From a virus (lineage: Duplodnaviria > Heunggongvirae > Uroviricota > Caudoviricetes): a stretch of 33,074 bases of DNA. This document shows positions 1 through 33,074 of the stretch, piece by piece. The stretch lies in IMG/VR virus record IMGVR_UViG_2737471830_000002; one strand, given 5' to 3'. The notes beneath the pieces are model-generated. The model had not been told where the DNA came from and made no database searches. It worked only from the letters and a program-made list of their open reading frames with translations. The position numbers and the translations under genes were made by a program. Within the stretch, counting starts at the first letter, position 1, and every line of letters begins with the position of its first letter.

Positions 1-1209
1 TTACCCATCAATCACACCGGGTCTGAAATCAAATACATTTGCATCCCATATAGTAAGATGAAATCTACAGTGATTCATCACTCCGGGAGCATGTTCCATA
101 TGAACAATTTTACTCATTTGAGGATGAGGCTGCGATTTTAATCTTATTAGAATGTCTCCAATTCCAGATGATATATTACCTGAAGATGTTGGTAAGCTTG
201 TGTCGCGAAAATGATAGGTTGAGAACCATGAAGATAAGTTTAAATCTAGTGAAGATATAAAGTTTAACTTATTTGTACCAACACCAATGGCATGAGCAAC
301 AGTAAAACCTGTTGAAGATACATCTATTTCATTAAAAATCAAAACTTCTTCATCAATTGAATTGCAATCTATAGAAAAACCATATCCTTCATCCATAACA
401 GGAGATGTAGCAACCTCTTGTTTTACTGCTCCCTGGCGGTTAAAAACATAGAATGGACCAAATTTTGTCTTTTGAGTTAACCTGTCAAGATTTGCTGGCG
501 AGGTATAGTATTTTGTACCTCTAATTGTTAATGCAATACGTGTGTATCCTCCTCCAGGGATATCGACAGTTATCCTCATTCCGTTTCCGATGACATCAGT
601 AAGAACGTTTTTAAATATCAACCCATCTATGTTGCTGCGGATAATGAACTCTACATCAGGGCCAATGTGCAACCGTTCCAGCAGTGAGACATCTATATTA
701 TGTGGTCTAGTAATTAAATACTTCCCTGAATTTACTACAAAAGAACCGTCTTTAAGCATATCATCAAGATAATCACTACACGATATATTACCAGTATTAT
801 CAGCCCCGTAAGATTTTAGATCCCCCCCAATGTATTGATAACCGTATGGAGAATGAAGTTGTTCCTTTAGTTGATCAGGGTCATACTTCAGCACATTCGG
901 AAAATAGAACTGCTGAGAACCGTACGCATCATATACAGCCATAGAATGGCCTTGCACGGTAACGAATTTGGCAATCTGTCCGTTATATACAGGATATCCG
1001 GCAGCGTTAATGATGATTGGCTGTGCAACAGGAACGTGAGAGCCGTCTTCGTTCTCCACATAAACCTGAATCTGGTTTTCAGGATTTACCGGGTCAGTGT
1101 CAATTTTACCGATATAAATTTTGCCATTGGCTACGGCTTTAAAAGAACGCGCCATAGTGAAGAGTTGCGAAGGCATGCTTACCACAACATTTGCGGTGAT
1201 ATCTGACAT
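1..1209 (-). CDS. Tailspike protein, 402 aa, P22-type head-binding N-terminal domain with a divergent short C-terminal domain
   Basis: N-terminus [46 protein letters not shown] closely matches the P22/Sf6/HK620 tailspike N-terminal domain; ATG at 1209 preceded by GGAG; stop codon occupies 1..3. Confidence 0.8.
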
Positions 1210-1225
1210 TTCATTGCTCCAGACG

Positions 1226-1252
1226 AATGATGTGATGCAACCATGATGTGAT
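1226..1252. promoter_or_regulatory. Direct repeat ATGATGTGAT x2 plus ATGCAA/TTGCAT inverted repeat in the divergent tailspike-mnt intergenic region; candidate operator
   Basis: Repeats read directly at 1226..1236 and 1242..1252 between divergently oriented tailspike and mnt starts. Confidence 0.3.
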
Positions 1253-1330
1253 TGCATACCGAAATGGTACTATTGAGTATTTATCCAGTAGGTTACGATG
1301 CCATTCCACCCAACTGGTGAGGCATCAAGG

Positions 1331-1591
1331 ATGTACAGCAAATACGACGAGGCGCAGTTTCACTTGAGACTTCCGCATGAACTCCACGCGAAAATTAAGC
1401 AGCGTGCGAAGATGAATAACAGGTCGCTGAACTCAGAGATAATTGCAGCGATTGAAGAATCATTGGCTAAACAAAGCTCTGCATCAGTTTACATTGACGA
1501 TGCAGAGCGTATGGCAGAACAACAATCTGATATGGTTAAGAAAATTGTCTTTGATACGCTCAAGGAGCTATATAAAAAAGACAGCAACTAA
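1331..1591 (+). CDS. mnt: Mnt-like ribbon-helix-helix repressor (immI-type)
   Basis: C-terminal half DAERMAEQQSDMVKKIVFDTLKELYKK resembles P22 Mnt; RHH-like N-terminus; ATG at 1331 with AAGG upstream; divergent from tailspike as in P22 immI. Confidence 0.7.
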   Translation: MYSKYDEAQFHLRLPHELHAKIKQRAKMNNRSLNSEIIAAIEESLAKQSSASVYIDDAERMAEQQSDMVKKIVFDTLKELYKKDSN

Positions 1592-1680
1592 CCATCCATT
1601 ACGGAGGATTTATGCAAAGAGATATGATGAATATTGCATTCTACATATTTGGTTTTTGCACTTTCCTGGTGTTTGCAAAG

Positions 1681-3678
1681 CTATTCTGACAACGCATCAG
1701 ACTTAGCCCCCTGCGTCAGAGCGTTAATTGCCTTTTGTGCCTGCTGCATTGCTTTCTCAAAGGCTGTTGATCCGCGTGGGGTGTTTGCCATTCGGAGCAT
1801 TGCATTTCTGAATGGTTCGCTCTCATAGGCGCGAGTAAGAAGTCCGTAGCTTACTGCTGCGCCAGTTGTCGCCGGGTTCATTGCCGTCCCATACCCGATA
1901 ATGAACGGGATGGTTTGCTGCCCTGTTGGTGTTGTTACTGCCGCTTTTGCTGCCTGCTGAGTGGACTGAAGGTAATTTTTCAAACCTTTCAGATAAGCAG
2001 CGTCCTGCCCCTTAAATGTGATGCCAGTCTGGCTTTGCAGGATGTTAAGCTGTCGAAGGAACTGGTCAGGGGATCCACCTGATTTCTCCATCGCCTTTCC
2101 AATGATGCCATTGCGCATTTGCGCCCTGCCAACACGACCAACTGAGTTATACAGCGTCTTAATTTCCGATTTGTTCTTGCTGAATAGCATGTTATTGACA
2201 ACTTCCGGCGTCAGATCGCCTTTCATGAGAACATTCTTCAGCCTGGTATTCTTTAGTTTCGCCGCTTCGTCAGCGTAGACGGCATTGGCCTGCTGATATT
2301 TACGGAGAGTATCGTTGCCAAGATTCTGACCAATGGCACCATTGATATCGTCGGTCATTGCCTTGTAAACGCGCTGAATGGCAGCATCGGAACGGTTTGG
2401 TAACACTGGTCGCTCCCCCTTCACGTCCATTCTGAACTGGCTGCGCAGATCGCTTAATTGCTTCAAATCCAGATTTACCGGACCATCAGGACCAGCATTG
2501 CGAACAAGCTCATCACGATAGGACTGAAGTTTTGAAATAGTCTCGTTATCAGCAACCTTACCAAGCTTCTGCAGGTTAGGTATTTCTGTATCAATCTGCT
2601 GAATTGCTCTTGCAGGCTGAATGTTTATTCCCGCCATAGCATTCTGAACCTGCTCCAGTCGATTTCCTGCAGCGCGACGAATTCCTGATGTTTTCGCTTT
2701 AAGGCTGTCAATAACAACCGCTGGATCATACTCACCGAATTTATCAGCAAATCTCTGAACCAACTGGCTTCTCGCTTCCTGTTGCGTTGCTCTCATTCCG
2801 CTTGTGCCAGCCAGGGGGATATTTTCTGCTGTCGTTTGCGCCATTTTTCCGACGCGGGAAGTAGGCTGTAACAGGTCTGTGGTGTGCAGAGGCACTCCTT
2901 CACGCTCTGCAAATCTGATAGTTTGCTGCGCTTCTGGTGCTATCGAACCACGAACACCACGATAAGCAGCACCTAATCCACGTCCGGCAGCGTTAATAGC
3001 ACCGCCAGCCAGCACACCAACGCCTAAATCGGTGGCGAGTGCTTCCGCATCATCTTTCGCACTGTTTGCAGCAAGTGATCCAACTGCGTTTTCTGCGAGA
3101 AGGCGAGTTGCCCCCTGAGCAATTCGACCAGCAAGTGTTGGTGCCTGTGTTGCCGCTCTCTCAACGCCAGCAGGAGTGAGGTAAGGCAATGCTTCAGCAA
3201 ATACCCTTCCCTCTGTCGTTTGTGGAGTCAGCGCGCCTTGCTGAAGGCCAAAGTCCTGCTCTAATCCCTGCGTTGTTACTCGTGGCGCTGGTTGATATGT
3301 ACCATCGCCAATGCCGAGTTTACCGCCAGCCCAAGCCGCCGCGCTTGTTACAGCATCTGCAACTGATGCAGGTATGTTTGCCACGTTCACGCCAGCCTGC
3401 ACCAGTCCGCGACCAGTCTCTTTCACTGCTTCACCAAGATCAGACATAAATCCACTTTGCTGTGGTTGTTGCTGTGCTACTGGTTGCTGTGTATCCACTG
3501 GCTGCACAGATGGCAATGGATAGGCAGCATAGAAAGCTTGCTTAGCCTGCTCTGCATTTTCTCCGGCTTGCGGGGCCACGACTTCATTGAAGTATTGCTC
3601 CTGAGCCTGCGCTTTTTGTTCTGGTGCTAACGCCTGATACTGTGGAGAGGCGATAACATCTTTCCATGCTTTAGCCAT
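1681..3678 (-). CDS. Ejection (injection) protein, P22 gp16 position
   Basis: 665-aa ORF, low-complexity Q/A-rich, last gene of the ejection-protein block by synteny with P22 (16-20-7-14-26-10-4). Confidence 0.6.
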   Translation of the reverse strand: MAKAWKDVIASPQYQALAPEQKAQAQEQYFNEVVAPQAGENAEQAKQAFYAAYPLPSVQPVDTQQPVAQQQPQQSGFMSDLGEAVKETGRGLVQAGVNVANIPASVADAVTSAAAWAGGKLGIGDGTYQPAPRVTTQGLEQDFGLQQGALTPQTTEGRVFAEALPYLTPAGVERAATQAPTLAGRIAQGATRLLAENAVGSLAANSAKDDAEALATDLGVGVLAGGAINAAGRGLGAAYRGVRGSIAPEAQQTIRFAEREGVPLHTTDLLQPTSRVGKMAQTTAENIPLAGTSGMRATQQEARSQLVQRFADKFGEYDPAVVIDSLKAKTSGIRRAAGNRLEQVQNAMAGINIQPARAIQQIDTEIPNLQKLGKVADNETISKLQSYRDELVRNAGPDGPVNLDLKQLSDLRSQFRMDVKGERPVLPNRSDAAIQRVYKAMTDDINGAIGQNLGNDTLRKYQQANAVYADEAAKLKNTRLKNVLMKGDLTPEVVNNMLFSKNKSEIKTLYNSVGRVGRAQMRNGIIGKAMEKSGGSPDQFLRQLNILQSQTGITFKGQDAAYLKGLKNYLQSTQQAAKAAVTTPTGQQTIPFIIGYGTAMNPATTGAAVSYGLLTRAYESEPFRNAMLRMANTPRGSTAFEKAMQQAQKAINALTQGAKSDALSE

Positions 3679-5072
3679 TAATCACCCCATAGTGAAGAAA
3701 AGTTACTGCTGGCTGCTGGCTGTGATACCTGTGCAGGTTGAGATTGCTGCCGCTGAGATTTACCAACATTAACGTTATATTGTTGGTTGTAATTGTTGGT
3801 GTATTCCTGAATCTCACGAATCGACTGCTGCATAGCCTCCGGGCTTGAATAGTCAACCTGCGGCATCCCCTGAAAATACATCTTCGCTTCTGCAACGGTG
3901 TTAATACCACTGGCCCCCATGTCCCTTGCTGCCGCCACACCCTGATTCTGCATTCTGCCCTGAATACGTTGTGCTGAGTTATATAACTGGCGCTGCTCTT
4001 TTCCTGTTAATCGGCTGCGAACATCAGCACCAATTGCCGGGTTACCTGCGCCGCCGGTCATTCCTGTCATGAAATCGAGAGCAGAAGCGTCTGCATTTGC
4101 GATCGCGTCGATATCCTTCTTCATGGCATAGTTTTGTGCTGATGCAGACGATGTTGCAGGCGCTGCGATTGAACTGGCAGGAACGCGAACCATATTCCCC
4201 TCGTTGTCGATGCCTTCGTAGAACGCATTTGCCCCAGCGCCGTGAAGTTTCCCGCCAACCGTTACAGTTCTGCCATCTGATAACTGAACTGTACGCTCAT
4301 CATTCCCAGCGGTTCCTCTTGTTGACGCTCGCTGCATTGCCAAATCCTGCCCGCGTCGCGCAGTAGAAGCAGATAAATCCTGACCGCGCATCGTGATGTT
4401 CTGACCTCGTGCTGTTAGCGCCTCTCCAGCCTGATTGCTGCGGATTGTCTCTGCAAGTTTTCCGCGATCAATCTCACGCCCAACGATTCTGTCTTGCGCC
4501 TGAAAATATTGTTCTGGACCAAGAGCAGCCATTCCAAGGTGATCAACAAACTCTGTGAAACCTTGTGGATTTTGCTGATACATTTTCGCCACATCCAGAG
4601 GGTCTACTCCGGCACGAGTAAGCTCAGATGAGTTGTTCTGCAACCATGACATCATGACTTCTAGAGATGAAGCTGCGAGTCTGACACTTGCTGCCAGTGT
4701 ACCGACAGTGGAACGCTGGTCTTCATCGACAAATTTCATGCCGTTTCTTACAGCGTCAAACTGCTCAGGATACTGTGATGCCAGTTTTCGCATTGCATCG
4801 CGGTCACCAGATGTATATGCATCAGCATAAGCCTGCTGAAACTCTTGCTGTCGCTTCTGCTGATCCATCTGCTTATACATATCCATGACAGATGAAATGC
4901 CCTGCAAAGCCTGCAAGCCAACGTTATTACGTCCTGAACGCTCCATCTCGTTATTCTGTCGAATGTATGCAAGCGTGGCGTCTGCATCACTTGCTCTTGG
5001 AGCGTTGGAGTTCATGCCGCCTAACCCGGCAAGAAGCGCGCCTGAATTACCAGCCTGTTGCCATGTAGCCAA
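3678..5072 (-). CDS. Ejection protein, P22 gp20 position
   Basis: 464-aa ORF; size and synteny; start overlaps the downstream gene stop. Confidence 0.6.
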
Positions 5073-9590: not shown

Positions 9591-10886
9591 TCACGCAGTC
9601 TGGTTAGGCAGACCAACACCAATTGCCTCTGGTCGTACAGCACATGCTGAATACCACACAGCAATACGGCACTTGCCAGACAGAGTGTTGATATCACCCT
9701 GCGTTGCGAAGATGCCGTTAACACCAATACCAGGAATGCTGAAGGAGGAAGTTTTCATGCCAGCAAACAGTTCATGGGTTACCGGAATCGGCTGAGACAG
9801 CAGGCGGATTGAGTCATCAGCCCAGAACACGTTAGCGGTGGTTGTTGCCACGTTCAGAACGTTTACCGGAGTGGTATCAGCAAGAGATGTGTTTACATTA
9901 GCGTAAGCCTTCTCTTCTTTTGTCAGTGACGCGTCATCCAGTGCAATCGGTTTCGGCGTGATTTCGATGTGAGTACCATCGATCACACGGGTGATTGAGA
10001 AAGTCGCATCATCAGTAAGCACGTTCTTCGCCATCTGAGACAGGAATTTCACACCAGTGAAGCTGATTTTGTCGCCGCGCTTAAACCCGGTGGTGGAGGA
10101 TACGGTCACCGTTGCAACACGGTTGTCGACGTTCTCCTTGTTACCATCGGTATCAAGGGTGTATTCCTGCGGCTTAAACTTCTGCGCTCCAGTCACAGTT
10201 ACACCAGTAGCGGTTGACTTGGTAACTGCCGGAAGTTTCGGTGAGCGAAGAATTTCATCAAAGCCAGCAATCTGACGCTGAATAGTACCGTTGCGATACG
10301 CTTCTTCAGGAACGCGCCCAAAGATGTCACCATCTACCAGGTTGCGGCCTGCTTTGCGGTAATCGTCAGGGTTCAGGAAGTAACTGATGCCCATATCGCG
10401 GTTTAGCTCACGGGAGAACATCAGGCGCTCTGCATCAGACACAAAATCCCAGCCAGACAGGCCAGTAGATGGACCAATTGCGCGGGTATCGTGAACAACA
10501 AGCGAGCCCATTTCAGTTGCCTGTTTGGCAATCGCTGACTCAATGTTATTCGCCAGTTTTTTGGCGGATGCCTGGATGCGGCGACGGTAAGAACGCTCAT
10601 CACGCAGGTCATCTGCACGAAGCTCGAAGAAATCGTTATCCGGATCACCCATGTTGCATTTCACGGAGAGTTCCAGAATCCCGGTAGCGTTGCCAGTTAA
10701 ATCCCAGCCAGTCTGAGTTGGCGCTTCCTGCTCAACAGGCATCCACACGGTGTTGCTTGAACGTTGCATGGATTCTGCAGGAGGGGTGTATTTTGTCACT
10801 TTGGACGCCATTGGCGTCAAGTTCTGGACGGTTTCGATGATTTCATCCAGAGCATACGTGACCAGTTGACCTTCATTTAATGCCAT
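9591..10886 (-). CDS. Major coat protein (P22 gp5-like)
   Basis: 431 aa; [27 protein letters not shown]...[13 protein letters not shown]...GVGLPNQTA is near-identical along its length to P22 coat. Confidence 0.95.
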
Positions 10887-11810: not shown

Positions 11811-13976
11811 TTATTGAGGTGTCTCGGCTACTCCGCCGGAGGGGATTTGAACTTGACGCATAAGATTCGCGAAATCCATGCGTTGTGAATGAGTCTGGTC
11901 TGCATCTTTAAGAAGCAGCTCAGCGTTAGCGCGAGCGTCTTTGCTGCGCTGTTGCTGGAATTGACCTACGAGCTTGAGGTACTCACGCAGTTCTGCCTGC
12001 TTGTCGAGGTCCATATTGTTGAAGATTTCTGCAATCTTCGCGGCGTTGAGTTGGTTTTGGGCTTCAACCTTGGCAGCTTCAACCTGAATCTGCGCCTGTT
12101 GGTTCTCTGCCTTGAGCAATTCAGCCTGACCTTGCAGAAGGATGCCCTGCGCCTGAATTTGCTCTGCTGATGGCTGCTGCGGCTGTTGTTGTGCCTGCTG
12201 CACCATCTCCATCTCTTCAGGTGTTTCTGGTTTCTTCAGCCCCATCATCACCAGTTGCTTGTTCGCGTACTCTCGCATCATCTCGACGCCTTTACCGTCA
12301 AGCAGCGTGAAGTATTGCAGCATCAGCATCTGGAACTCTGGAGTACCTTGCGGAACCTTGGTGAGTAACTCCTGAATCTCTGCGCGGTTCTGTTCCTTCA
12401 TACTCTGGAAGGATGGTCCAACGTCTGTATAGCACTCATAGCGACCGCGAATGTCGTTGAGTGTGACCACATTACCGGACTGGTAATCTACAACTTGCGC
12501 GTAGAGTTGAACGTCTTTCTCGCTACCATCTTCAAGTGTCAGCGTTACATGACGAGGAACATCATAAATATCGTTGACCATTGAGGCATAAATCTCGCCA
12601 TCACGTCGCATTGCGGTAGCCAGGTTATCCTGAAACACGTATGTCTCAAGGTCTGCCCGCATGTTCAGTTGATTGACGGTATCGAAAGCGACCTGACCAT
12701 TTGCCGCCTGCGCATCCACGCCAAGACTAGCCACCTCTTTCACTGCGTTGGTGGCAGCCTCAAGCATGTAAGCGTTGGCTTGCGGCACTTCAGGGTTTTC
12801 CATGTAGGAGATTGGACCAATCGGCAGGTCGTTACCGTTTTCATCGGTCTTGTTCTGCAGATAGTACGGATAGTCATCATTTCCACCGTACATGTATTCG
12901 TAGCCTTCGATTTGCTCAGGGAAGAAGGTCGGTTTCTTCTTCGGTGAACGAGCAACGATATCGGCGTTGAACGACATGATCATGTTACGAAGGCGTTGAC
13001 CGTCTTTCGTCAGCCTTACCACTCCCTCGTAGCACTCCTTGTCACCAGCGAATGACCATTCTCCATACACTGGAACGATTGGGATATGCTCTCCAGCTAT
13101 CTTCTCGCGGTCTTTCAGTATCTGCGTGCAGGTGATGATCGACTTATACACACGCCGACGCTTGACCTTACGCTCTGCTACCTTAATGAATCCACGATTA
13201 GCCAGGTCGTCGATGACGTCTTTGATATCCTGCTGGTAATAGCTGACCGGCTCACCTGTCAGCGGGTCGCGGTAGATGAAGACTTTCTCTTTCTTCTCTT
13301 CGACCTCGTAATACTCAGCGACGTAGACGACATCATTCGATACCCACGGAAACAGCCATGTATCGTTCGGATTCTGGAAAGATGGCAAGGTGTCCGGATC
13401 AATACCGTAATCCTCTGCGAACTCTTTCCAGCCATTGCGCGACAAGGCGTTAATCACCGTGCAGTGCTTAGCGTCGCTCTTATCCATCTGCTTGCTGTTG
13501 GCGTCCCATATGACGTGTGAGCAGGCTTCATGAATTGGCAGGCGTCGAATTACCTGATTGTTGCTTGTTGGATCGTTGTCTTCGTACTGCGTGACCAGAC
13601 GCCATGCACCAACGCCGGACTCTATCTGCTCACGAACGCCAACGTTAACGGCAATTTTTGCCGTGTTATGGCGCATATCAGTACGATACATCCCCATCAA
13701 CACATCGGCTGCATCAGGATTAGCACCGTCTTTTGGTCGGAAGAGAACGTCGATAGGGTTCCGGCGCATCTCTGCGACCAACTTCCTGACCACCGGGCGA
13801 ACAACATCGAATTGTCCGCGATATTGCAGGGTGGTGTAGTTTGATAGCCAGTCATCCCATTGCGACACTCGGCTAAAATACAGGTCATTTGTCGCCTCGG
13901 TTCTGGCTTCATCGCTCGCCATCCAGTCCGCGTCAAACTTACACAGAATGGAATTGAGTCTGTTTTCGTCGGCCAT
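11811..13976 (-). CDS. Portal protein (P22 gp1-like)
   Basis: 721 aa, between terminase and scaffold; C-terminal Q-rich coiled-coil barrel region typical of P22 portal. Confidence 0.85.
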
Positions 13977-16641: not shown

Positions 16642-17172
16642 TCACACCATTCCGGGCAAATACATTTGCACTTCATTTGCCGCTCTCTGACGTGCAACAT
16701 GAAGCAATCTTTTTCGCCCACCAACGCCCCACTTAGCCATTTGGCTTGCGCACTGGCTTATCGCTTTGGTTTCAGTATTGATGATGTGATCGATTCTATT
16801 CAGACGGGACATTGCGCCAACGCCGAGACGGACAACCGTTTTGAAAACTTCATAAACTTCGATTTCAAATTCCGGCTTAATCCATGCTGCATATCTGATT
16901 GCCAGAAGTTCAACACCCCACACACCTGGTTCTGCACCACCTTTGATTATTTTAAGTGGTTGAATTTGTTCCAAAGTGCTTTTTTGCACTTTGGCCTCCA
17001 GTGCTTTTATGAAGCGTTTTATCTGCGCGCTACGCAAAAACTGGCTTGGGCGCTGTTGCTCTGTAGCCTCTCCATTTGCAACTGCTGCTGCATGGAGATC
17101 GTTTAAGTTGTAGCGTCCATCCTCATCAACACGAACGGACACACCATTGACAATAACTGTTGGGTACTTCAT
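16642..17172 (-). CDS. KilA-N domain protein
   Basis: N-terminus VIVNGVSVRVDEDGRYNLNDLHAAA is typical of KilA-N/APSES-type domains; 176 aa. Confidence 0.6.
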   Translation of the reverse strand: MKYPTVIVNGVSVRVDEDGRYNLNDLHAAAVANGEATEQQRPSQFLRSAQIKRFIKALEAKVQKSTLEQIQPLKIIKGGAEPGVWGVELLAIRYAAWIKPEFEIEVYEVFKTVVRLGVGAMSRLNRIDHIINTETKAISQCASQMAKWGVGGRKRLLHVARQRAANEVQMYLPGMV

Positions 17173-20193: not shown

Positions 20194-20480
20194 GACTTAA
20201 TCTTCCCCTCCTTCAGCAGTATCGCCTGCGTCCTGATCACGCCTTCGAGGTGGTAAAGTCTGGCGTCTTTGTTGTCGAGGTTATGGGTGCGTCGGTCGAT
20301 TTCATCGTGACACGCGCTACAAGCCCATGCGCCGATCAGGTCGTCAGGCTTCATTCCCGTTCCGCAAATTCCAGCCATCCGGTAATGTGCCAGAACTGTA
20401 GTTTCAGGATTGCCATTGCATACGCCGTAAATACGTACCTGGCATTCTCTGCCGCGTGCTTCTTTGCGTAGGTTAGCCAT
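20190..20480 (-). CDS. YbcO-like (DUF1364) protein
   Basis: 96 aa, Cys-rich; lies immediately upstream of rusA as ybcO does in the DLP12 prophage. Confidence 0.55.
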   Translation of the reverse strand: MANLRKEARGRECQVRIYGVCNGNPETTVLAHYRMAGICGTGMKPDDLIGAWACSACHDEIDRRTHNLDNKDARLYHLEGVIRTQAILLKEGKIKS

Positions 20481-21202
20481 TAAGCAGCCTCCCCTGTTAC
20501 TTTCAGCATTCCGTTATCGAGAAGCTTTCTGGTCAGCCACTGTTGACCACGCCCGGTGATTTTTGTGGTGAACGATATCTGTATTCCGTGATTTGTGTTG
20601 ACCGCTGTTTCTTTCACTGTGAAATAGCCGCGATCCATATATTCCTGCATTGGCACATTGCGCCGGGAACCTGAAGCAATAAGGATTTTGTGATCGCGCA
20701 TCCATGCAAACAGTTTGTTTGGACCAATACCAACAACCTTTGCATAGTTTCCAATCAAAATTCCGCTGGCCTCGCCAACGCGATCGGCAAACTCAACTTT
20801 AGGTGCGGCAATTGCGAGCTGGTTTTCCAGTTGCATTTTCTGCTCAGCAAGATCAGCAGCAAGGCGCAACGCTTCTGGTAGCGTTTTGGGGATATTAACC
20901 GCAGTTTCTTCAAGCTCTCGCCAACGGTCAACAAGACGAGCGGTGAATTCCGGCGACAACTGGGCAACAACGACAATACTGTCTCGCTTACCTTGTTCGC
21001 CTTCGAAGACGTAATGCTCGTACTGAACATTGAACCCTAAGTTATTGATTCTTTCGAAAACCTCAATTTGAGGAAGCCGGATAACACCATTTTTAGCCAG
21101 CGTTTCGATGGTACGCTTCACATTGTCATGACGCTTACCAACCAACTCAGCGATTTCAATGCTTGTCATTTTGATGGCATTGCCATTTATTAACTCATTC
21201 AT
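20480..21202 (-). CDS. Rha/Roi-like phage regulatory protein with antirepressor (KilA-C/ANT) C-terminal domain
   Basis: 240 aa; N-terminal HTH-like segment MTSIEIAELVGKRHDNVKRTIETLAK; located in the nin region where roi sits in HK022/HK97. Confidence 0.6.
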   Translation of the reverse strand: MNELINGNAIKMTSIEIAELVGKRHDNVKRTIETLAKNGVIRLPQIEVFERINNLGFNVQYEHYVFEGEQGKRDSIVVVAQLSPEFTARLVDRWRELEETAVNIPKTLPEALRLAADLAEQKMQLENQLAIAAPKVEFADRVGEASGILIGNYAKVVGIGPNKLFAWMRDHKILIASGSRRNVPMQEYMDRGYFTVKETAVNTNHGIQISFTTKITGRGQQWLTRKLLDNGMLKVTGEAA

Positions 21203-30008: not shown

Positions 30009-30775
30009 AACAAATGTCACTAATTGAGATGGATGGATTTCTGAAAGGTAAATGCATCCCACGAGATTTAAAGGTTAACGAAACAAACGCTGAATATCTT
30101 GTCCGTAAGTTCGGTGAACTTGAATCAAAACTCAACGAGCAGCGTGAGTATTACGAGGGCGTTATCTCGGATGGGAGTAAGCGTATTGCTGAACTGGAGA
30201 AAAGCGAAGAGCAACTCATCAACGAGCGTGACCATGCTGAGTATGCTTTAGCTGATATGTATTTTGCAGCAACCGGGAACAGGCCGGAATGGAGTAACTG
30301 TTTCAGTTTTTCAGATGCAGTAGATGCCGTAGTTGACAGAATTGCTGATTTAGAAGCTAAACAGCCATCGCCAGTAGTACCGGAAGAAAAACCAATGCCT
30401 AATCCTCTTAGCATGTACGCGGTTGATGCTGTTGCCGCTATTGCAGAGGTGAGAGGCTGGAATGCCTGCCGCGCCGCCATGCTTCATGGTGCCGAACCTG
30501 TAAGCCAAACTTACAAGTTGAACGAGCTATCTGGCAACTCTCCGGTAACTCCGGATAGTTGGATAAGCTGTAGTGAGCGAATGCCGGACGATAAACAGTA
30601 TGTTTGGTTTTTTGGGGAGTCTCGCGGATTTGCTGGACGCGATACCTTCGAAGGGTATTACGATTGGTCGAGAAACAAATGGTGGGCAGTAACTGACATT
30701 GGAGAAGAACCTGCATCAAAAGTAACCCACTGGATGCCGCTGCCAGAACCGCCGTGGGAGGTTAACCGTGGCTAA
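30005..30775 (+). CDS. DUF551-like prophage protein
   Basis: C-terminal region [18 protein letters not shown]...WWAV...[10 protein letters not shown] resembles the DUF551 signature common in enterobacterial prophages. Confidence 0.55.
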
Positions 30776-30875
30776 CCTGCAACTTGCCGTCAAAGGTGAA
30801 TAACAATCCTCGCACTCGCGGGGATTTCTTTTATCTGAACTCGTTACGGCGGGTTTTGTTTTATGGAGATGATAA

Positions 30876-31043
30876 ATGCACTTCCGAGTCACAGGTGAAT
30901 GGAATGGAGAACCATTCAACAGAGTTATCGAAGCAGAGAACATCAACGACTGCTATGACCACTGGATGATATGGGCGCAGATAGCACATGCAGACGTAAC
31001 CAATATTCGAATTGAAGAACTGAAAGAACACCAAGCCGCCTGA
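30876..31043 (+). CDS. Hypothetical small protein (55 aa)
   Basis: ATG at 30876 after GGAGATGATAA; a terminator hairpin overlaps its stop. Confidence 0.35.
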   Translation: MHFRVTGEWNGEPFNRVIEAENINDCYDHWMIWAQIAHADVTNIRIEELKEHQAA

Positions 31044-31056
31044 TGGCGGTTTTTTA
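31033..31056 (+). terminator. Intrinsic terminator
   Basis: AAGCCGCC-TGAT-GGCGGTTT followed by TTTTTATT. Confidence 0.5.
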
Positions 31057-31065
31057 TTGCCTGAT

Positions 31066-31082
31066 TTGCAGGTTCGATTCCC
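31066..31082 (+). other. tRNA T-arm-like fragment (TTGCAGGTTCGATTCC) upstream of the excisionase gene
   Basis: Matches the T-loop consensus GGTTCGATTCC and, as recalled, the argW T-arm, but is not part of a foldable full tRNA. Confidence 0.4.
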
Positions 31083-31100
31083 TATTCGGAGATAGCACTC

Positions 31101-31301
31101 ATGCAACACGAACTACAGCCTGATTCACTGGTTGATTTGAAATTCATCATGGCTGATACTGGCTTTGGTAAAACCTTCATCTACGACCGGATTAAGTCCG
31201 GCGACCTGCCAAAAGCCAAAGTTATCCACGGGCGAGCAAGATGGTTATATCGTGACCATTGTGAATTCAAAAATAAGCTCTTAAGCCGCGCTAATGGGTA
31301 A
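31101..31301 (+). CDS. torI: Excisionase / recombination directionality factor, AlpA/TorI family
   Basis: 66 aa, MQHELQPDSLVDLKFIMADTGFGKTFIYDRIKSGDLPKAKVIHGRARWLYRDHCEFKNKLL; winged-helix AlpA-type; matches E. coli TorI as recalled. Confidence 0.75.
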   Translation: MQHELQPDSLVDLKFIMADTGFGKTFIYDRIKSGDLPKAKVIHGRARWLYRDHCEFKNKLLSRANG

Positions 31302-31374
31302 AATAGCGGGTAAAATATTTTTCACATCTAAAAAATACCATTCCAATCAATCCCCTGCCGCTTCAAGTAGATGT

Positions 31375-31389
31375 CTGCAGGGGACACCA
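31375..31389 (+). other. Attachment-site core: tRNA 3'-end fragment CTGCAGGGGACACCA (likely argW-derived)
   Basis: Acceptor-stem 3' strand plus discriminator plus CCA with no upstream tRNA body; phage genes to the left, host-like sequence to the right. Confidence 0.55.
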
Positions 31390-31549
31390 GATACCCTTCA
31401 AACGAAATCTACCTTCACTCCGTAAAAGATGGGTTTGGCAGCATGCCCTATATCTACTCATTTTTACTGCAACAGGTTGAAATCTCAGCACTGTCAGAAA
31501 GCGTTGATGACTAAACAGCCCTGGGCCGGGCGATGTAACCATCACACAG

Positions 31550-31748
31550 AATCCTGATAGCGAAATATGGCGTGACTCGATACTTCACTCCGCAATGCAT
31601 TCCTTGATGAATTCGCATGCCCGTGATACACGGGACAGGTCGCTGAATGACGACAATGTCCTGGAAATCAGCGAACCGCGTATCCGGAGTACATTTGAGC
31701 GACTGTACCAGAACATGAATGAGGCGTTTGGATTAGGTGATTATTAGC
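31550..31748 (+). other. Open frame without convincing start; possible gene remnant in the host flank
   Basis: About 66 sense codons ending ...RLYQNMNEAFGLGDY then stop; not identified. Confidence 0.2.
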
Positions 31749-31826
31749 AGGGCTAAGCATTTTAGTATTATTATTTTCCGGTTGAGGGATATGGAGATAT
31801 CGACAACAACCGGAAAAAGTTTACGT

Positions 31827-33074
31827 CTATATTGCTGAAGGTACAGGCGTTTCCATCACTATTTGCTCGCGTTTTTTACTCAGGAAGAAAATGCCAAATA
31901 GCAACATCATGCAGACAATACCCGAAATTGCGAAGAAAACTGTCTGGTAGCCTGCGTGGTCAAAGAGTATCCCAGTCGGCGTTGAAAGCAGCACAATCCC
32001 AAGCGAACTGGCAATTTGAAAACCAATCAGAAAGATCGTCGACGACAGGCGCTTATCAAAGTTTGCCACGCTGTATTTGAAGACGGATATGACACAAAGT
32101 GGAACCTCAATGGCATGTAACAGCTTCACTAATGAAATAATCCAGGGGTTAACGAACAGCGCGCAGGAAAGGATACGCAACGCCATAATCACAACACCGA
32201 TAAGTAATGCATTTTTTGGCCCTACCCGATTCACAAAGAACGGAATAATCGCCATGCACAGCGCTTCGAGTACCACCTGGAATGAGTTGAGATAACCATA
32301 CAGGCGCGTTCCTACATCGTGTGATTCGAATAAACCTGCATAAAAGACAGGAAAAAGTTGTTGATCAAAAATGTTATAGAAAGACCACGTCCCAACAATA
32401 AATATGACGAAAACCCAGAAGTTTCGATCCTTGAAAACTGCGATAAAATCCTCTTTTTTTACCCCTCCCGCATCCGCCGCTACGCACTGGTGATCCTTAT
32501 CTTTAAAACACATGTTGATCATCATAAATACAGCGCCAAATAGCGAGACCAACCAGAAGTTGATATGGGGACTGATACTAAAAAATATGCCGGCAAAGAA
32601 CGCGCCAATAGCATAGCCAAAAGATCCCCAGGCGCGCGCTGTTCCATATTCGAAATGAAAATTTCGCGCCATTTTTTCGGTGAAGCTGTCAAGCAAACCG
32701 CATCCCGCCAGATACCCCAGGCCAAAAAAGAGCGCCCCCAGAATTAGACCTACAGAAAAATTGCTTTGCAGTAACGGTTCATAAACGTAAATCATAAACG
32801 GTCCGGTCAAGACCAGGATAAAACTCATACACCAGATGAGCGGTTTCTTCAGACCGAGTTTATCCTGAACGATGCCGTAGAACATCATAAATAGAATGCT
32901 GGTAAACTGGTTGACCGAATAAAGTGTACCTAATTCCGTCCCTGTCAACCCTAGATGTCCTTTCAGCCAAATAGCGTATAACGACCACCACAGCGACCAG
33001 GAAATAAAAAAGAGAAATGAGTAACTGGATGCAAAACGATAGTACGCATTTCTGAATGGAATATTCAGTGCCAT
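31827..33074 (-). CDS. cscB: LacY-family oligosaccharide:H+ symporter, probably sucrose permease CscB
   Basis: 415 aa, 12-TM MFS; aligns along its length with LacY; the start codon is the last three bases of the window. Confidence 0.8.
   Translation of the reverse strand: MALNIPFRNAYYRFASSYSFLFFISWSLWWSLYAIWLKGHLGLTGTELGTLYSVNQFTSILFMMFYGIVQDKLGLKKPLIWCMSFILVLTGPFMIYVYEPLLQSNFSVGLILGALFFGLGYLAGCGLLDSFTEKMARNFHFEYGTARAWGSFGYAIGAFFAGIFFSISPHINFWLVSLFGAVFMMINMCFKDKDHQCVAADAGGVKKEDFIAVFKDRNFWVFVIFIVGTWSFYNIFDQQLFPVFYAGLFESHDVGTRLYGYLNSFQVVLEALCMAIIPFFVNRVGPKNALLIGVVIMALRILSCALFVNPWIISLVKLLHAIEVPLCVISVFKYSVANFDKRLSSTIFLIGFQIASSLGIVLLSTPTGILFDHAGYQTVFFAISGIVCMMLLFGIFFLSKKREQIVMETPVPSAI

Follow-up and report, generated by a model that had tools for sequence, protein, structure and literature searches.

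Positions 1226-1610 of the window (the whole 33,074-nucleotide stretch of Caudoviricetes DNA analysed here) would form a functional, self-regulating repressor-operator cassette with a lone Mnt, expressed from the prophage and located between the gp16-like and tailspike genes of a P22-like E. coli prophage. From the sequence, we give this reading about an even chance. The boundaries of the cassette were set against Sf6, whose tailspike and gp16 flanks are 80% and 91% identical across the junction, with no mnt. P22-like genomes have been known to contain lone mnt genes for more than 15 years, and the published comments stop at "another function or a remnant". The window and its relatives show strong purifying selection, a matched operator with diversified specificity, and a link to the tailspike junction despite a full antirepressor module elsewhere. 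These findings turn an annotation puzzle into a testable question, namely the role played at the final late-operon junction by a repressor that binds beside its own gene. Experiments can now build on a defined operator, a defined promoter, and a set of natural specificity swaps. The practical gains are modest, consisting of a better mnt annotation and a candidate small membrane peptide.

Mnt and its predicted operator

The mnt gene (1331-1591, + strand) encodes an 86-residue protein of the Mnt repressor family, which is defined by P22 Mnt (Pfam PF03869 and PF11423). The initial annotation recognised a lone Mnt homologue between gp16 and the tailspike, and this is borne out by 49% identity to P22 Mnt and by both Pfam domains, with Arc matching residues 7-49 (7.5e-15) and Repressor_Mnt matching residues 57-82 (3.4e-14). 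Among PDB structures, the protein matches 1MNT over residues 6-79 (3.4e-19) and 1QEY, the Mnt tetramerisation domain (1.7e-8). The layout consists of a ribbon-helix-helix DNA-binding domain at approximately residues 1-50 and a C-terminal tetramerisation helix at approximately residues 56-84. A complete Mnt-type repressor, whose ribbon-helix-helix dimers would assemble into a tetramer through the C-terminal helix, is strongly supported at the sequence level. The Pfam matches to HicB and FitA reflect generic ribbon-helix-helix similarity. When the six-frame translation of the window was searched with a profile from ten ribbon-helix-helix proteins, mnt was the only ribbon-helix-helix ORF.

Two lines of evidence support a start codon at 1331, namely the P22 Mnt alignment and indels that break the reading frame in the leaders of relatives. 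The ATG at 1298, which is the mnt start in the Sf101 record, was rejected, since the leader indels break its frame in relatives and the -10 element overlaps 1298. In existing records, mnt is missing from the annotation of IME10 and appears in Sf101 (RefSeq) as a "partition protein ATPase" with a 97-aa start, and genomic copies at NCBI are labelled "Arc family DNA-binding protein".

Over codons 1-47, dN/dS is 0.04-0.07 against VSe13, JEP4, Serratia, and other relatives, with synonymous sites saturated, indicating strong purifying selection on the DNA-binding domain. Judged in this way, the window mnt is not decaying. The phage L genome authors raised the possibility that the mnt-like gene of that phage is a remnant (PMC8022706), and a single relative (Citrobacter, L092) carries an mnt pseudogene, with its operator also mutated (GGTA to AGTA). 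However, that mnt is a decaying and functionless leftover of immI is very improbable. In addition to the low dN/dS across genera, only one of the examined loci lacks an intact ORF, conservation extends to both the operator and the -10 element, and the arrangement persists across phages of Escherichia, Shigella, Salmonella, Serratia, Buttiauxella, and Proteus.

The predicted mnt promoter (1273-1299, + strand) is composed of a -35 TTGAGT (1273-1278), a 15-bp spacer, and a -10 TACGAT (1294-1299), and was assigned by positional homology to the annotated P22 Pmnt (TTGAGA-17-TATCAT). It is the top sigma-70 matrix match of the intergenic region, with a modest score of 7.2, and the TACGAT -10 is invariant among 70 distinct upstream sequences. 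Most other subtypes have a 17-bp spacer, whereas the 15-bp spacer of the window is poor. This spacer and the modest score count against our main reading. We also considered a different promoter for mnt, one whose spacer would contain the operator. Such a promoter scores 11.5 in the Buttiauxella subgroup (TTGATA-17-TATTGT) but only 5.8 in the window subtype (TTGCAT-17-GAGTAT), where it is not conserved, and we rejected it as not general.

A leader palindrome, GATGCC-N18-GGCATC (1297-1326), overlaps the -10 element and the mnt leader. It is conserved in the lone-mnt loci of classes 2 and 3 (defined below) and absent from P22 and epsilon34. As a minus-strand RNA it folds at -14.9 kcal/mol (z -2.1). 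An mnt mRNA hairpin at this place is doubtful because the 5' arm overlaps the -10 element and so lies upstream of the predicted transcript start.

The predicted Mnt operator is a palindrome at 1255-1271 (CATACC GAAAT GGTACT, with the core TACC-N5-GGTA at 1257-1269). It lies 1 bp upstream of the mnt -35 element, just as O_mnt is placed with respect to the ATTGAG -35 in P22, and its centre precedes the predicted start of the mnt transcript by approximately 43 bp. The ATTG(A/T) -35 beside it is conserved. We distinguished three classes in which the recognition strand and the operator are paired: HFNFRMP with GGTCCACCGTGGACC in class 1, QFNLRLP with AGACCACNGTGGTCT in class 2, and QFHLRLP with TACC-N5-GGTA in class 3. 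In natural domain swaps, the operator type is predicted by the N-terminal domain and not by the C-terminal domain. The TACC-N5-GGTA core is kept in 160 of the 167 class-3 loci, with the central 5 bp variable, as a single copy approximately 75 bp before the mnt ATG; no second class-3 operator recurs within 3 kb in the 167 loci. Its position, its co-variation with the recognition strand, the domain swaps, and this conservation strongly support the 1255-1271 palindrome as the predicted cognate operator of the window Mnt.

The recognition strand of the window Mnt is A-Q-F-H-L-R-L-P. The base-contacting residues of P22 Mnt are reportedly Arg2, His6, Asn8, and Arg10, from published mutagenesis. In the alignment, these positions are occupied by Tyr5, Gln9, His11, and Arg13 in the window Mnt, so that three of the four differ (Arg2 to Tyr5, His6 to Gln9, and Asn8 to His11) and only Arg13 is retained. 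The changes in the contact residues point to a different specificity and not to a lost function. The core motif TACC-N5-GGTA also occurs at 9864 in the coat gene and at 12473 in the portal gene, giving three sites in the window versus 0.18 expected. If these two sites are real, the Mnt regulon would exceed the one proposed here. The coat and portal sequences of Sf6 are unrelated to those of the window, so Sf6 offers no comparison for these two matches.

The tailspike leader and the region downstream of mnt

On the minus strand, the tailspike gene (1-1209) covers the N-terminal head-binding domain and the first portion of the receptor-binding region before the window edge cuts it. The protein matches Pfam Head_binding (1.1e-67) and is 71% identical to residues 1-124 of P22 gp9. 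Its start codon is at 1207-1209, preceded by a GGAG ribosome-binding site at 1218-1221 (complement); an in-frame ATG at 1257 is unsupported as a start by the gp9 alignment. The intergenic region between the tailspike and mnt starts (1210-1330) is 121 bp long, and the distance from the mnt stop at 1591 to the gp16-like stop at 1681 is 89 bp, in agreement with the 120 and 90 bp given in the initial annotation. The latter interval contains a small ORF and is thus not empty.

The two direct repeats and the ATGCAA/TTGCAT inverted repeat noted earlier are present in 1210-1330. The direct repeat, ATGATGTGAT, occurs at 1227-1236 and 1243-1252, with three matches in the window versus 0.19 expected. The exact 10-nt repeat is private to the window, and the commonest variant among relatives (42 loci) has ATGATATGAT as the first copy. 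The conserved part of these repeats is the inverted repeat and not the direct repeat. With ATGCAA/TTGCAT as its core and the direct repeat overlapping it, the inverted repeat (I2, arms 1235-1243 and 1249-1257) forms a predicted tailspike-leader hairpin on the minus strand (1235-1257), which has a 9-bp stem and a 5-nt loop and is located approximately 25 nt upstream of the tailspike AUG. Over 13 distinct variants, 96.6% of cells are paired; one change is compensatory (G-C to U-A), and five are one-sided with pairing kept as G-U or A-U on the minus strand. These pairing statistics are weak, as 22 of 500 shuffles did equally well, and the folding energy is unremarkable (z -0.8). ST64T/VSe13-type leaders contain analogous hairpins, as does Sf6, a phage lacking mnt. 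We rejected the repeats as the Mnt site because the direct repeat is private to the window and the inverted repeat behaves like a tailspike-leader hairpin, with a counterpart in the mnt-free Sf6. A regulatory site in the intergenic region, as suggested by the initial annotation, is predicted, but it is the adjacent palindrome at 1255-1271 instead of the repeats.

Mnt may repress a vestige of Pant directed at the tailspike, in which case the tailspike would be silent in lysogens and expressed in a burst early in infection. A possible effect of Mnt/Arc on transcription entering the tailspike gene was suggested by Villafane et al. (2008; PMC2629481). Placed between mnt and the tailspike, the operator is approximately 50 bp from the tailspike start, where in P22 a Pant-type transcript would begin, and in about 95% of loci this type of Mnt is next to the tailspike regardless of the other genes there. 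Recognisable remnants of Pant are ATGGCA at -35 and TAAATA at -10. However, the best tailspike-directed sigma-70 matrix score is 4.2, the chance level for a 121-bp region, compared with 15.8 for P22 Pant, and the window holds no strong Pant overlapping Pmnt and facing away from mnt. A consensus promoter scan of the window also gave no tailspike-directed promoter, and above-chance matrix hits toward the tailspike are likewise absent in VSe13, ST64T, and Gally. The candidate hexamers vary among subtypes and lack key -10 positions, and relatives freely exchange the sequence left of the operator. With matrix scores at chance and hexamers that are not conserved, we rejected the vestige as a working promoter. 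The earlier proposal that Mnt regulates a tailspike promoter is thus left with no recognisable sigma-70 promoter, and we consider a tailspike-directed function of this kind unlikely.

On the other side of mnt, the gp16-like DNA-ejection protein gene (1681-3678, - strand) is the last late gene before the cassette. Its product is 34% identical to P22 gp16 over 582 residues (E 1e-75), and the gene has 95-96% nucleotide identity to Sf6 gene 13. Between the two genes we found an unannotated 25-codon ORF (MQRDMMNIAFYIFGFCTFLVFAKLF; 1612-1689, + strand), which begins 20 nt after mnt behind a GGAGGA ribosome-binding site (1603-1608) and shares 9 nt with the end of the gp16-like gene. Of 36 distinct variants, 35 keep the ORF intact, among them Sf6, Gally, and VSe13 with different upstream contexts, and its variable sites by codon position are 15/7/17. 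Neither Pfam nor PHROG gives a match for it, and terminator prediction found none separating it from mnt. By its sequence, it is probably a small membrane peptide co-transcribed with mnt. A type II toxin-antitoxin pair was considered and rejected, as the only downstream ORF is this hydrophobic peptide, which has no family match and is present without mnt in Sf6.

The cassette may be an expression unit for downstream cargo, here the 25-codon membrane peptide, with Mnt as a mere autoregulator. The close spacing, the strong ribosome-binding site, and the lack of a predicted terminator are consistent with this, and so are the lipoprotein genes directly after mnt in Proteus phage Brookers and a Buttiauxella prophage, and P22 orf59a, which follows mnt ahead of the mnt terminator. 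However, Sf6 carries the small ORF without mnt, and in Gally and VSe13 it follows other genes. In JEP4-like, VSe13, and Gally loci, the next gene is convergent and mnt has no downstream gene on its own strand, so cargo is not the general role of the cassette. We regard cargo expression as the main purpose of the unit to be quite improbable.

A further hairpin lies inside mnt (1476-1508, - strand; inverted repeat I1) with perfect 10-bp arms. It folds at -23.7 kcal/mol on the plus strand (z -5.8) and at -18 kcal/mol on the minus strand (z -3.5), where UUUGUUU follows it. By its sequence, it looks like a terminator for transcripts coming from gp16. The hairpin is confined to the mnt subtype of the window and is disrupted in the nearest outgroup, L088.

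Distribution of the cassette and possible clients of Mnt

In the window, immI is represented by mnt alone, which lies between the homologues of gene 16 and gene 9 and is transcribed against the late operon. Using tblastn, we found no homologue of P22 arc, ant, sieA, or orf59a in the window, which confirms the absence of arc, sieA, and a P22-type ant near mnt. The arc-ant junction, which encodes sar, is missing as well, and the window has no Rfam match and no tRNA genes. The initial annotation held that arc/ant homologues elsewhere in the prophage would speak against it. One weak case exists, an antirepressor-family protein in the nin region (20480-21202) with Pfam Rha and ANT/KilAC domains and a match to phrog_63 "anti-repressor Ant" (3.5e-99). 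It is the only ANT-domain protein of the window, its similarity to P22 Ant is marginal (tblastn E 0.044), and no Mnt-type operator is nearby, so a P22-type ant under Mnt control was not found. In E. coli ST12468, a close relative, the DNA beyond the tailspike edge of the window carries genes for an acyltransferase and, beside tRNA-Arg, for IntS, and both arc and ant are missing from it.

Class-3 Mnt adjoins the tailspike in about 95% of approximately 250 relatives (IMG/VR loci), and the arrangement of the window recurs in 135 of 5426 complete E. coli genomes. In 45-50 relatives, the class-3 mnt and its operator are beside the tailspike and a complete antirepressor module, with a second Mnt-like repressor, Arc, and Bro/Rha/KilA/Ant, is on the other side. 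Because of the tailspike adjacency and this coexistence, the tailspike-proximal Mnt cassette is, on comparative sequence grounds, not simply a leftover of an arc-ant deletion. The earlier statement that only mnt remains of mnt-arc-ant is thus too simple.

We propose that, in the lysogen, Mnt would be made from its own weak promoter and would bind the single site centred near -43. In P22, bound Mnt favours Pmnt. By analogy with P22, the bound protein would set its own level, with stimulation or homeostasis expected over shut-off. The mnt transcript would probably include the 25-codon membrane-peptide ORF. The tailspike gene, having no recognisable promoter of its own, would be expressed by Q-antiterminated late transcription running antisense through the cassette, which would place the bound tetramer at the boundary of prophage-expressed and late transcription. 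We expect a further client, since a repressor of itself alone has no obvious selective value. The real client may be either this boundary or an incoming phage with the same operator, and we do not choose between the two.

The second of these leads to the idea, also raised in the initial annotation, that Mnt is a trans-acting immunity factor, supplied by the resident prophage, that shuts off an antirepressor promoter, or another promoter, with the same operator on an incoming related phage. Three co-varying repressor/operator specificities under strong purifying selection are typical of immunity systems, and antirepressor-like gene fragments beside a class-3 operator in two loci (L152 and L078) suggest that such phages existed. 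However, a class-3 operator is never found before an intact arc/ant, neither in the 167 class-3 loci nor in a wider set of approximately 250 IMG/VR loci, the phage database, and GTDB genomes. Where antirepressor modules occur in the same phages, they are equipped with Mnt-like and Arc-like repressors of their own and lack a class-3 operator. The recognition residues and the operator differ from those of P22, so a P22-type Pant should not be the target. Immunity against ant-carrying phages as first formulated is not supported, and its broader form seems to us doubtful.

Returning to the self-regulating cassette, a wider view is that the tailspike-proximal Mnt would be no immI relic but a distinct and kept regulator with at least two specificities, which would control the tailspike boundary or act on rival phages. 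In the lineage of the window, it would also drive the 25-residue membrane peptide, possibly a new superinfection-exclusion factor. The peptide is a candidate for exclusion because it occupies the position of P22 sieA and is linked to the ejection-protein allele. We offer this extended view as a long shot.

Comparison with known systems

The layout is common and already described, as mnt-only "ant morons" of P22-like phages were reported in 2008 and 2020 (Villafane et al. 2008, PMC2629481; Zaworski et al. 2020, PMC8022706). In the literature searched, the function of a lone Mnt has received descriptive remarks only.

P22 Mnt and the window Mnt have the two-domain architecture in common, and their C-terminal tetramerisation helices are nearly identical. 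P22 immI comprises mnt, Pmnt-Omnt-Pant, arc, sar, and ant. There, mnt likewise runs against the late operon in the interval from gene 16 to gene 9, and a 17-bp palindromic operator lies 1 bp from the TTGAG-type -35 of the mnt promoter, as in the window. The operator itself is different (GTCCAC-N-GTGGAC in P22 and TACC-N5-GGTA in the window). Unlike P22, the window has no recognisable Pant, arc, ant, sieA, or orf59a, and the divergent neighbour of mnt is the tailspike gene itself.

The mnt-only regions of ST64T, ST104, phage L, SE1, and ST160 are more similar in layout. Their lone mnt is separated by 121-135 bp from the start of the divergent tailspike gene, and they have no arc or ant, with the same promoter layout and the same GATGCC...GGCATC leader palindrome as the window. 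Their recognition strand (QFNLRLP) and operator (AGACCACGGTGGTCT) are both unlike those of the window, and these Salmonella phages have one extra gene between mnt and gene 16, whereas the window has only the 25-codon ORF.

JEP4-like phages have the same class-3 N-terminal domain, operator, promoter, and tailspike-adjacent position as the window. Their interval from mnt to gene 16 adds a further Mnt-like repressor, an Arc-like one, and Bro, Rha, KilA, or Ant genes, convergent with mnt, none of which is present in the window. In Sf101, the tailspike-mnt junction and mnt are 98.4% identical to the window; the match ends with mnt, and a different ejection-protein gene comes next. IME10 carries the same cassette in the same context, with 97% nucleotide identity over window positions 1150-1750. 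E. coli prophages at argW, of the IntS/TorI type, are a known setting with the same arrangement as the window.

The lone mnt gene and its prophage

The window contains the greater part of a P22-like prophage (Lederbergvirus), whose late operon is on the minus strand. The tailspike gene (Pfam Head_binding, 1.1e-67) runs on the minus strand from 1209 down to 1, where the window edge cuts it. A 121-bp intergenic region separates it from mnt (1331-1591, plus strand), and another 89 bp lie between mnt and the gp16-like ejection-protein gene (1681-3678, minus strand). The right end of the prophage (30700-33074) lacks an integrase and contains a DUF551 gene, a TorI-type excisionase (~31101-31301) and a host oligosaccharide MFS transporter of the LacY family (31827-33074, 415 aa). 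The DNA past the tailspike lies outside the window, and the close relative E. coli ST12468 served as a guide there: beyond its tailspike are an acyltransferase and IntS, adjacent to tRNA-Arg. Based on this layout and the right-end genes, the window is a common IntS/TorI-type prophage at argW. A KilA-N domain protein (16642-17172, minus strand; Pfam 7.2e-18; phrog_129 'transcriptional regulator') is encoded between the lysis and terminase genes.

The 86-aa mnt product carries both Pfam Mnt signatures (Arc, 7.5e-15; Repressor_Mnt, 3.4e-14), matches the solved pieces of P22 Mnt (1MNT, 3.4e-19; 1QEY, 1.7e-8) and is 49% identical to P22 Mnt. Judged by both domains and a predicted operator, the protein is a member of the Mnt family with changed specificity residues. 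Comparing the first 47 codons of mnt in the window with those of VSe13, JEP4, Serratia and further relatives gave dN/dS values of 0.04-0.07, with synonymous sites near saturation. This ratio indicates that the gene is not decaying, making a functionless remnant highly improbable. In RefSeq, mnt is labelled 'partition protein ATPase' in phages Sf101 (NC_027398), P22 (NC_002371) and epsilon34 (NC_011976); the Sf101 gene is annotated with a 97-aa start overlapping the promoter, and the mnt region of IME10 (NC_019501) carries no annotation whatever.

The initial annotation described a lone mnt, its distances to both neighbors and the intergenic repeats, all of which we located. It also claimed the absence of arc, ant and sieA. 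P22 arc, ant, sieA and orf59a gave no credible tblastn match in the 33 kb, a ten-protein ribbon-helix-helix profile run on the six-frame translation of the window matched mnt alone, and Rfam gave no match in the window. The absence of arc and sieA was thereby borne out. For ant it held only for the P22 gene, since the nin region encodes an antirepressor-family protein with Rha and ANT/KilAC domains (20480-21202, minus strand; phrog_63 'anti-repressor Ant', 3.5e-99). This gene is embedded in the early right operon, and no Mnt-type operator was found near it.

Predicted operator and specificity classes

We aligned the mnt upstream regions of the window, IME10, Sf101, VSe13, JEP4, Gally, ST160, ST64T, Brookers, epsilon34 and P22 with genomic loci from Escherichia, Buttiauxella, Serratia and Citrobacter. 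In every aligned sequence, a palindrome occupies the annotated P22 Mnt operator position, directly 5' of a conserved ATTG(A/T) -35 element. Its sequence covaries with the Mnt recognition strand, which defines three classes. Class 1 (P22, epsilon34) combines HFNFRMP with the operator GGTCCACCGTGGACC, and class 2 (ST64T, ST160, Gally, Brookers) combines QFNLRLP/T with AGACCAC(G/T)GTGGTCT. Class 3, to which the window belongs, combines QFHLRLP/T/S with (C/A)ATACC-N5-GGTAC; the predicted operator of the window is CATACCGAAATGGTACT at 1255-1271.

Natural recombinants of the N- and C-terminal Mnt domains provided a two-by-two test of operator type. Two relative loci (L166, L168) with a class-2 N-terminal domain and a VSe13-type C-terminal domain have a class-2 operator, as does Gally. 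VSe13, with a class-3 N-terminal domain, has a class-3 operator, and so does locus L150, which joins a class-3 N-terminal domain to a Gally-type C-terminal domain. The TACC and GGTA arms are near-invariant among 70 distinct class-3 upstream sequences, and the central five bases are variable. The motif is single and lies ~75 bp 5' of the mnt ATG in 160 of 167 class-3 loci, among which no second site recurs within 3 kb. The sole class-3 mnt pseudogene seen, in Citrobacter sp. (L092, mnt at 4001), has a stop at codon 5, and its operator is mutated too, from GGTA to AGTA (TACCGAAATAGTA), as if protein and site had decayed together. The covariation, domain recombinants, arm conservation, single site and joint mutation are strong comparative evidence that Mnt and the palindrome form a working repressor-operator pair.

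The operator core TACC-N5-GGTA also occurs exactly in the coat gene (9864-9876, TACCGGAGTGGTA) and the portal gene (12473-12485, TACCGGACTGGTA), giving three copies in the window against 0.18 expected; the coat and portal copies differ at one base. The coat and portal sequences of Sf6 are unrelated to those of the window.

Promoters, leader elements and the tailspike junction

The predicted Pmnt of the window, identified through its homology to the P22 Pmnt annotation (TTGAGA-17-TATCAT), consists of TTGAGT (1273-1278) and TACGAT (1294-1299). The TACGAT -10 shows no variation across the 70 distinct class-3 upstream sequences. The window subtype has a 15-bp spacer, against 17 bp in most of the other subtypes. 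This Pmnt homologue is the top sigma-70 weight matrix match in the intergenic region (7.2), and likewise in VSe13, ST64T and Gally; in Brookers and the Buttiauxella locus, the top score goes to another pair of mnt-sense hexamers. The matrix gave 15.8 for Pant and 12.3 for Pmnt in P22 and epsilon34. Toward the tailspike, the best scores in the window, VSe13, ST64T and Gally were ~4-6, the chance level for such a length, and a separate promoter scan of the window also found none in this direction. The old Pant positions read ATGGCA and TAAATA in the window and are not conserved among subtypes. From the chance-level scores and unconserved hexamers, we conclude that Pant has been lost and that no recognizable sigma-70 promoter faces the tailspike. 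The earlier proposal that Mnt may regulate a tailspike promoter thus lacks a recognizable target, and Mnt control of a cryptic one is unlikely.

Relative to the predicted mnt start near 1306, the operator is centred (1263) at about -43. An operator centred near -43 is the geometry in which P22 Mnt favours Pmnt. By this analogy, stimulation or homeostasis of its own promoter would be expected from Mnt rather than shut-off.

The tailspike head-binding start lies 103-140 bp 5' of mnt and divergent from it in ~154 of 176 loci, and 80 further loci agreed with this pattern. The exceptions mostly carry insertions, a homing-endonuclease gene being one example. In L054, L089 and L113, the gene between tailspike and mnt is homing-endonuclease-like (~180 aa; HNH/AP2-type motifs, by eye from the translation), and a short piece of the former tailspike 5' end (ATGTCAGATATCACC...) persists beside the operator. 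In 45-50 IMG/VR loci and phage JEP4, class-3 mnt and its operator adjoin the tailspike, and mnt has a complete antirepressor module on its 3' side. The module comprises a second Mnt-like repressor, an Arc-like repressor in divergent orientation to it, and then Bro, Rha, KilA or Ant genes. It is therefore the tailspike junction, and not an antirepressor, with which class-3 Mnt is linked. Antirepressor-like gene fragments beside the class-3 operator in L152 and L078 make a former mnt/ant pairing possible, but not as the present state. The Sf6 flanks are 80% (tailspike) and 91% (gp16) identical across the junction without mnt, which places the cassette boundaries at ~1226-1610. The initial view that only mnt remains from immI is too simple; its observation was confirmed and its interpretation partly supported, but the locus is no simple deletion remnant and has no recognizable tailspike promoter.

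The repeat ATGATGTGAT occurs at 1227 and 1243. The exact direct repeat is private to the window, and the commonest variant among relatives has ATGATATGAT as the first copy. The ATGCAA/TTGCAT pair forms the central part of an inverted repeat of 9 nt. A tailspike-leader hairpin (1235-1257) shows pairing-preserving changes among 13 distinct variants, with 96.6% of cells paired, one compensatory change and several one-sided changes that preserve pairing solely in minus-strand RNA, though its statistics and folding energy are weak. Different hairpins lie at an equal distance from the tailspike AUG in ST64T/VSe13-type leaders and in Sf6, which makes this a tailspike-leader feature independent of Mnt. 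The palindrome GATGCC-N18-GGCATC (1297-1326) overlaps the mnt -10 and leader; it is common to the lone-mnt loci of classes 2 and 3 and missing from P22 and epsilon34, with apparent compensatory changes of its inner stem in the Buttiauxella and ST64T types. Within mnt, a perfect 10-bp inverted repeat (1476-1508; z -5.8 on the plus and -3.5 on the minus strand) is followed on the minus strand by UUUGUUU (T-run 1469-1475). It looks like an intrinsic terminator for transcripts coming from gp16, is limited to the mnt subtype of the window and is disrupted in L088, the nearest outgroup.

The 89 bp after mnt hold an unannotated 25-codon ORF (MQRDMMNIAFYIFGFCTFLVFAKLF; 1612-1689, plus strand) preceded by a GGAGGA ribosome-binding site; its end shares 9 nt with the gp16-like stop. 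Of 36 distinct variants, 35 keep the ORF intact, among them Gally, VSe13 and Sf6, which lacks mnt, and its second codon positions vary least. The ORF may encode a small membrane peptide that the prophage produces, and in the window it probably shares a transcript with mnt. That the cassette serves as a driver for downstream cargo seems quite doubtful.

The comparisons establish a complete Mnt-type repressor with a matched, predicted operator beside its own promoter, the loss of Pant, arc and ant, and conservation. In a lysogen, an Mnt tetramer would bind 1255-1271 and set its own synthesis, and the mnt transcript would continue into the 25-codon ORF. Tailspike expression would come from antiterminated late transcription running through the cassette in antisense. 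We give about even chances to the reading that the cassette is self-contained and autoregulatory and acts as a boundary element.

Abundance and relation to known mnt regions

IME10 carries the same 600 bp at 97% identity, and Sf101 matches at 98.4% up to the mnt end, followed by a different ejection-protein gene. Among complete E. coli genomes, 610 of 5426 match part of the arrangement and 135 of 5426 match at least 80% of it; in IMG/VR, ~230 contigs encode a relative. The lone-mnt arrangement is not rare. Another conceivable role of Mnt, trans-acting immunity to phages that carry the same operator, we regard as unlikely.

'Ant morons' with mnt alone have been described in ST64T, ST104 and Para1, and the region was called highly variable (PMC2629481). 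The window locus belongs to this published class of mnt-only regions, within which it exemplifies a specificity type for which we found no description. The 25-codon ORF holds the place that sieA has in P22. The locus is no P22-type immI region, because ant, arc and Pant were tested for and are absent.
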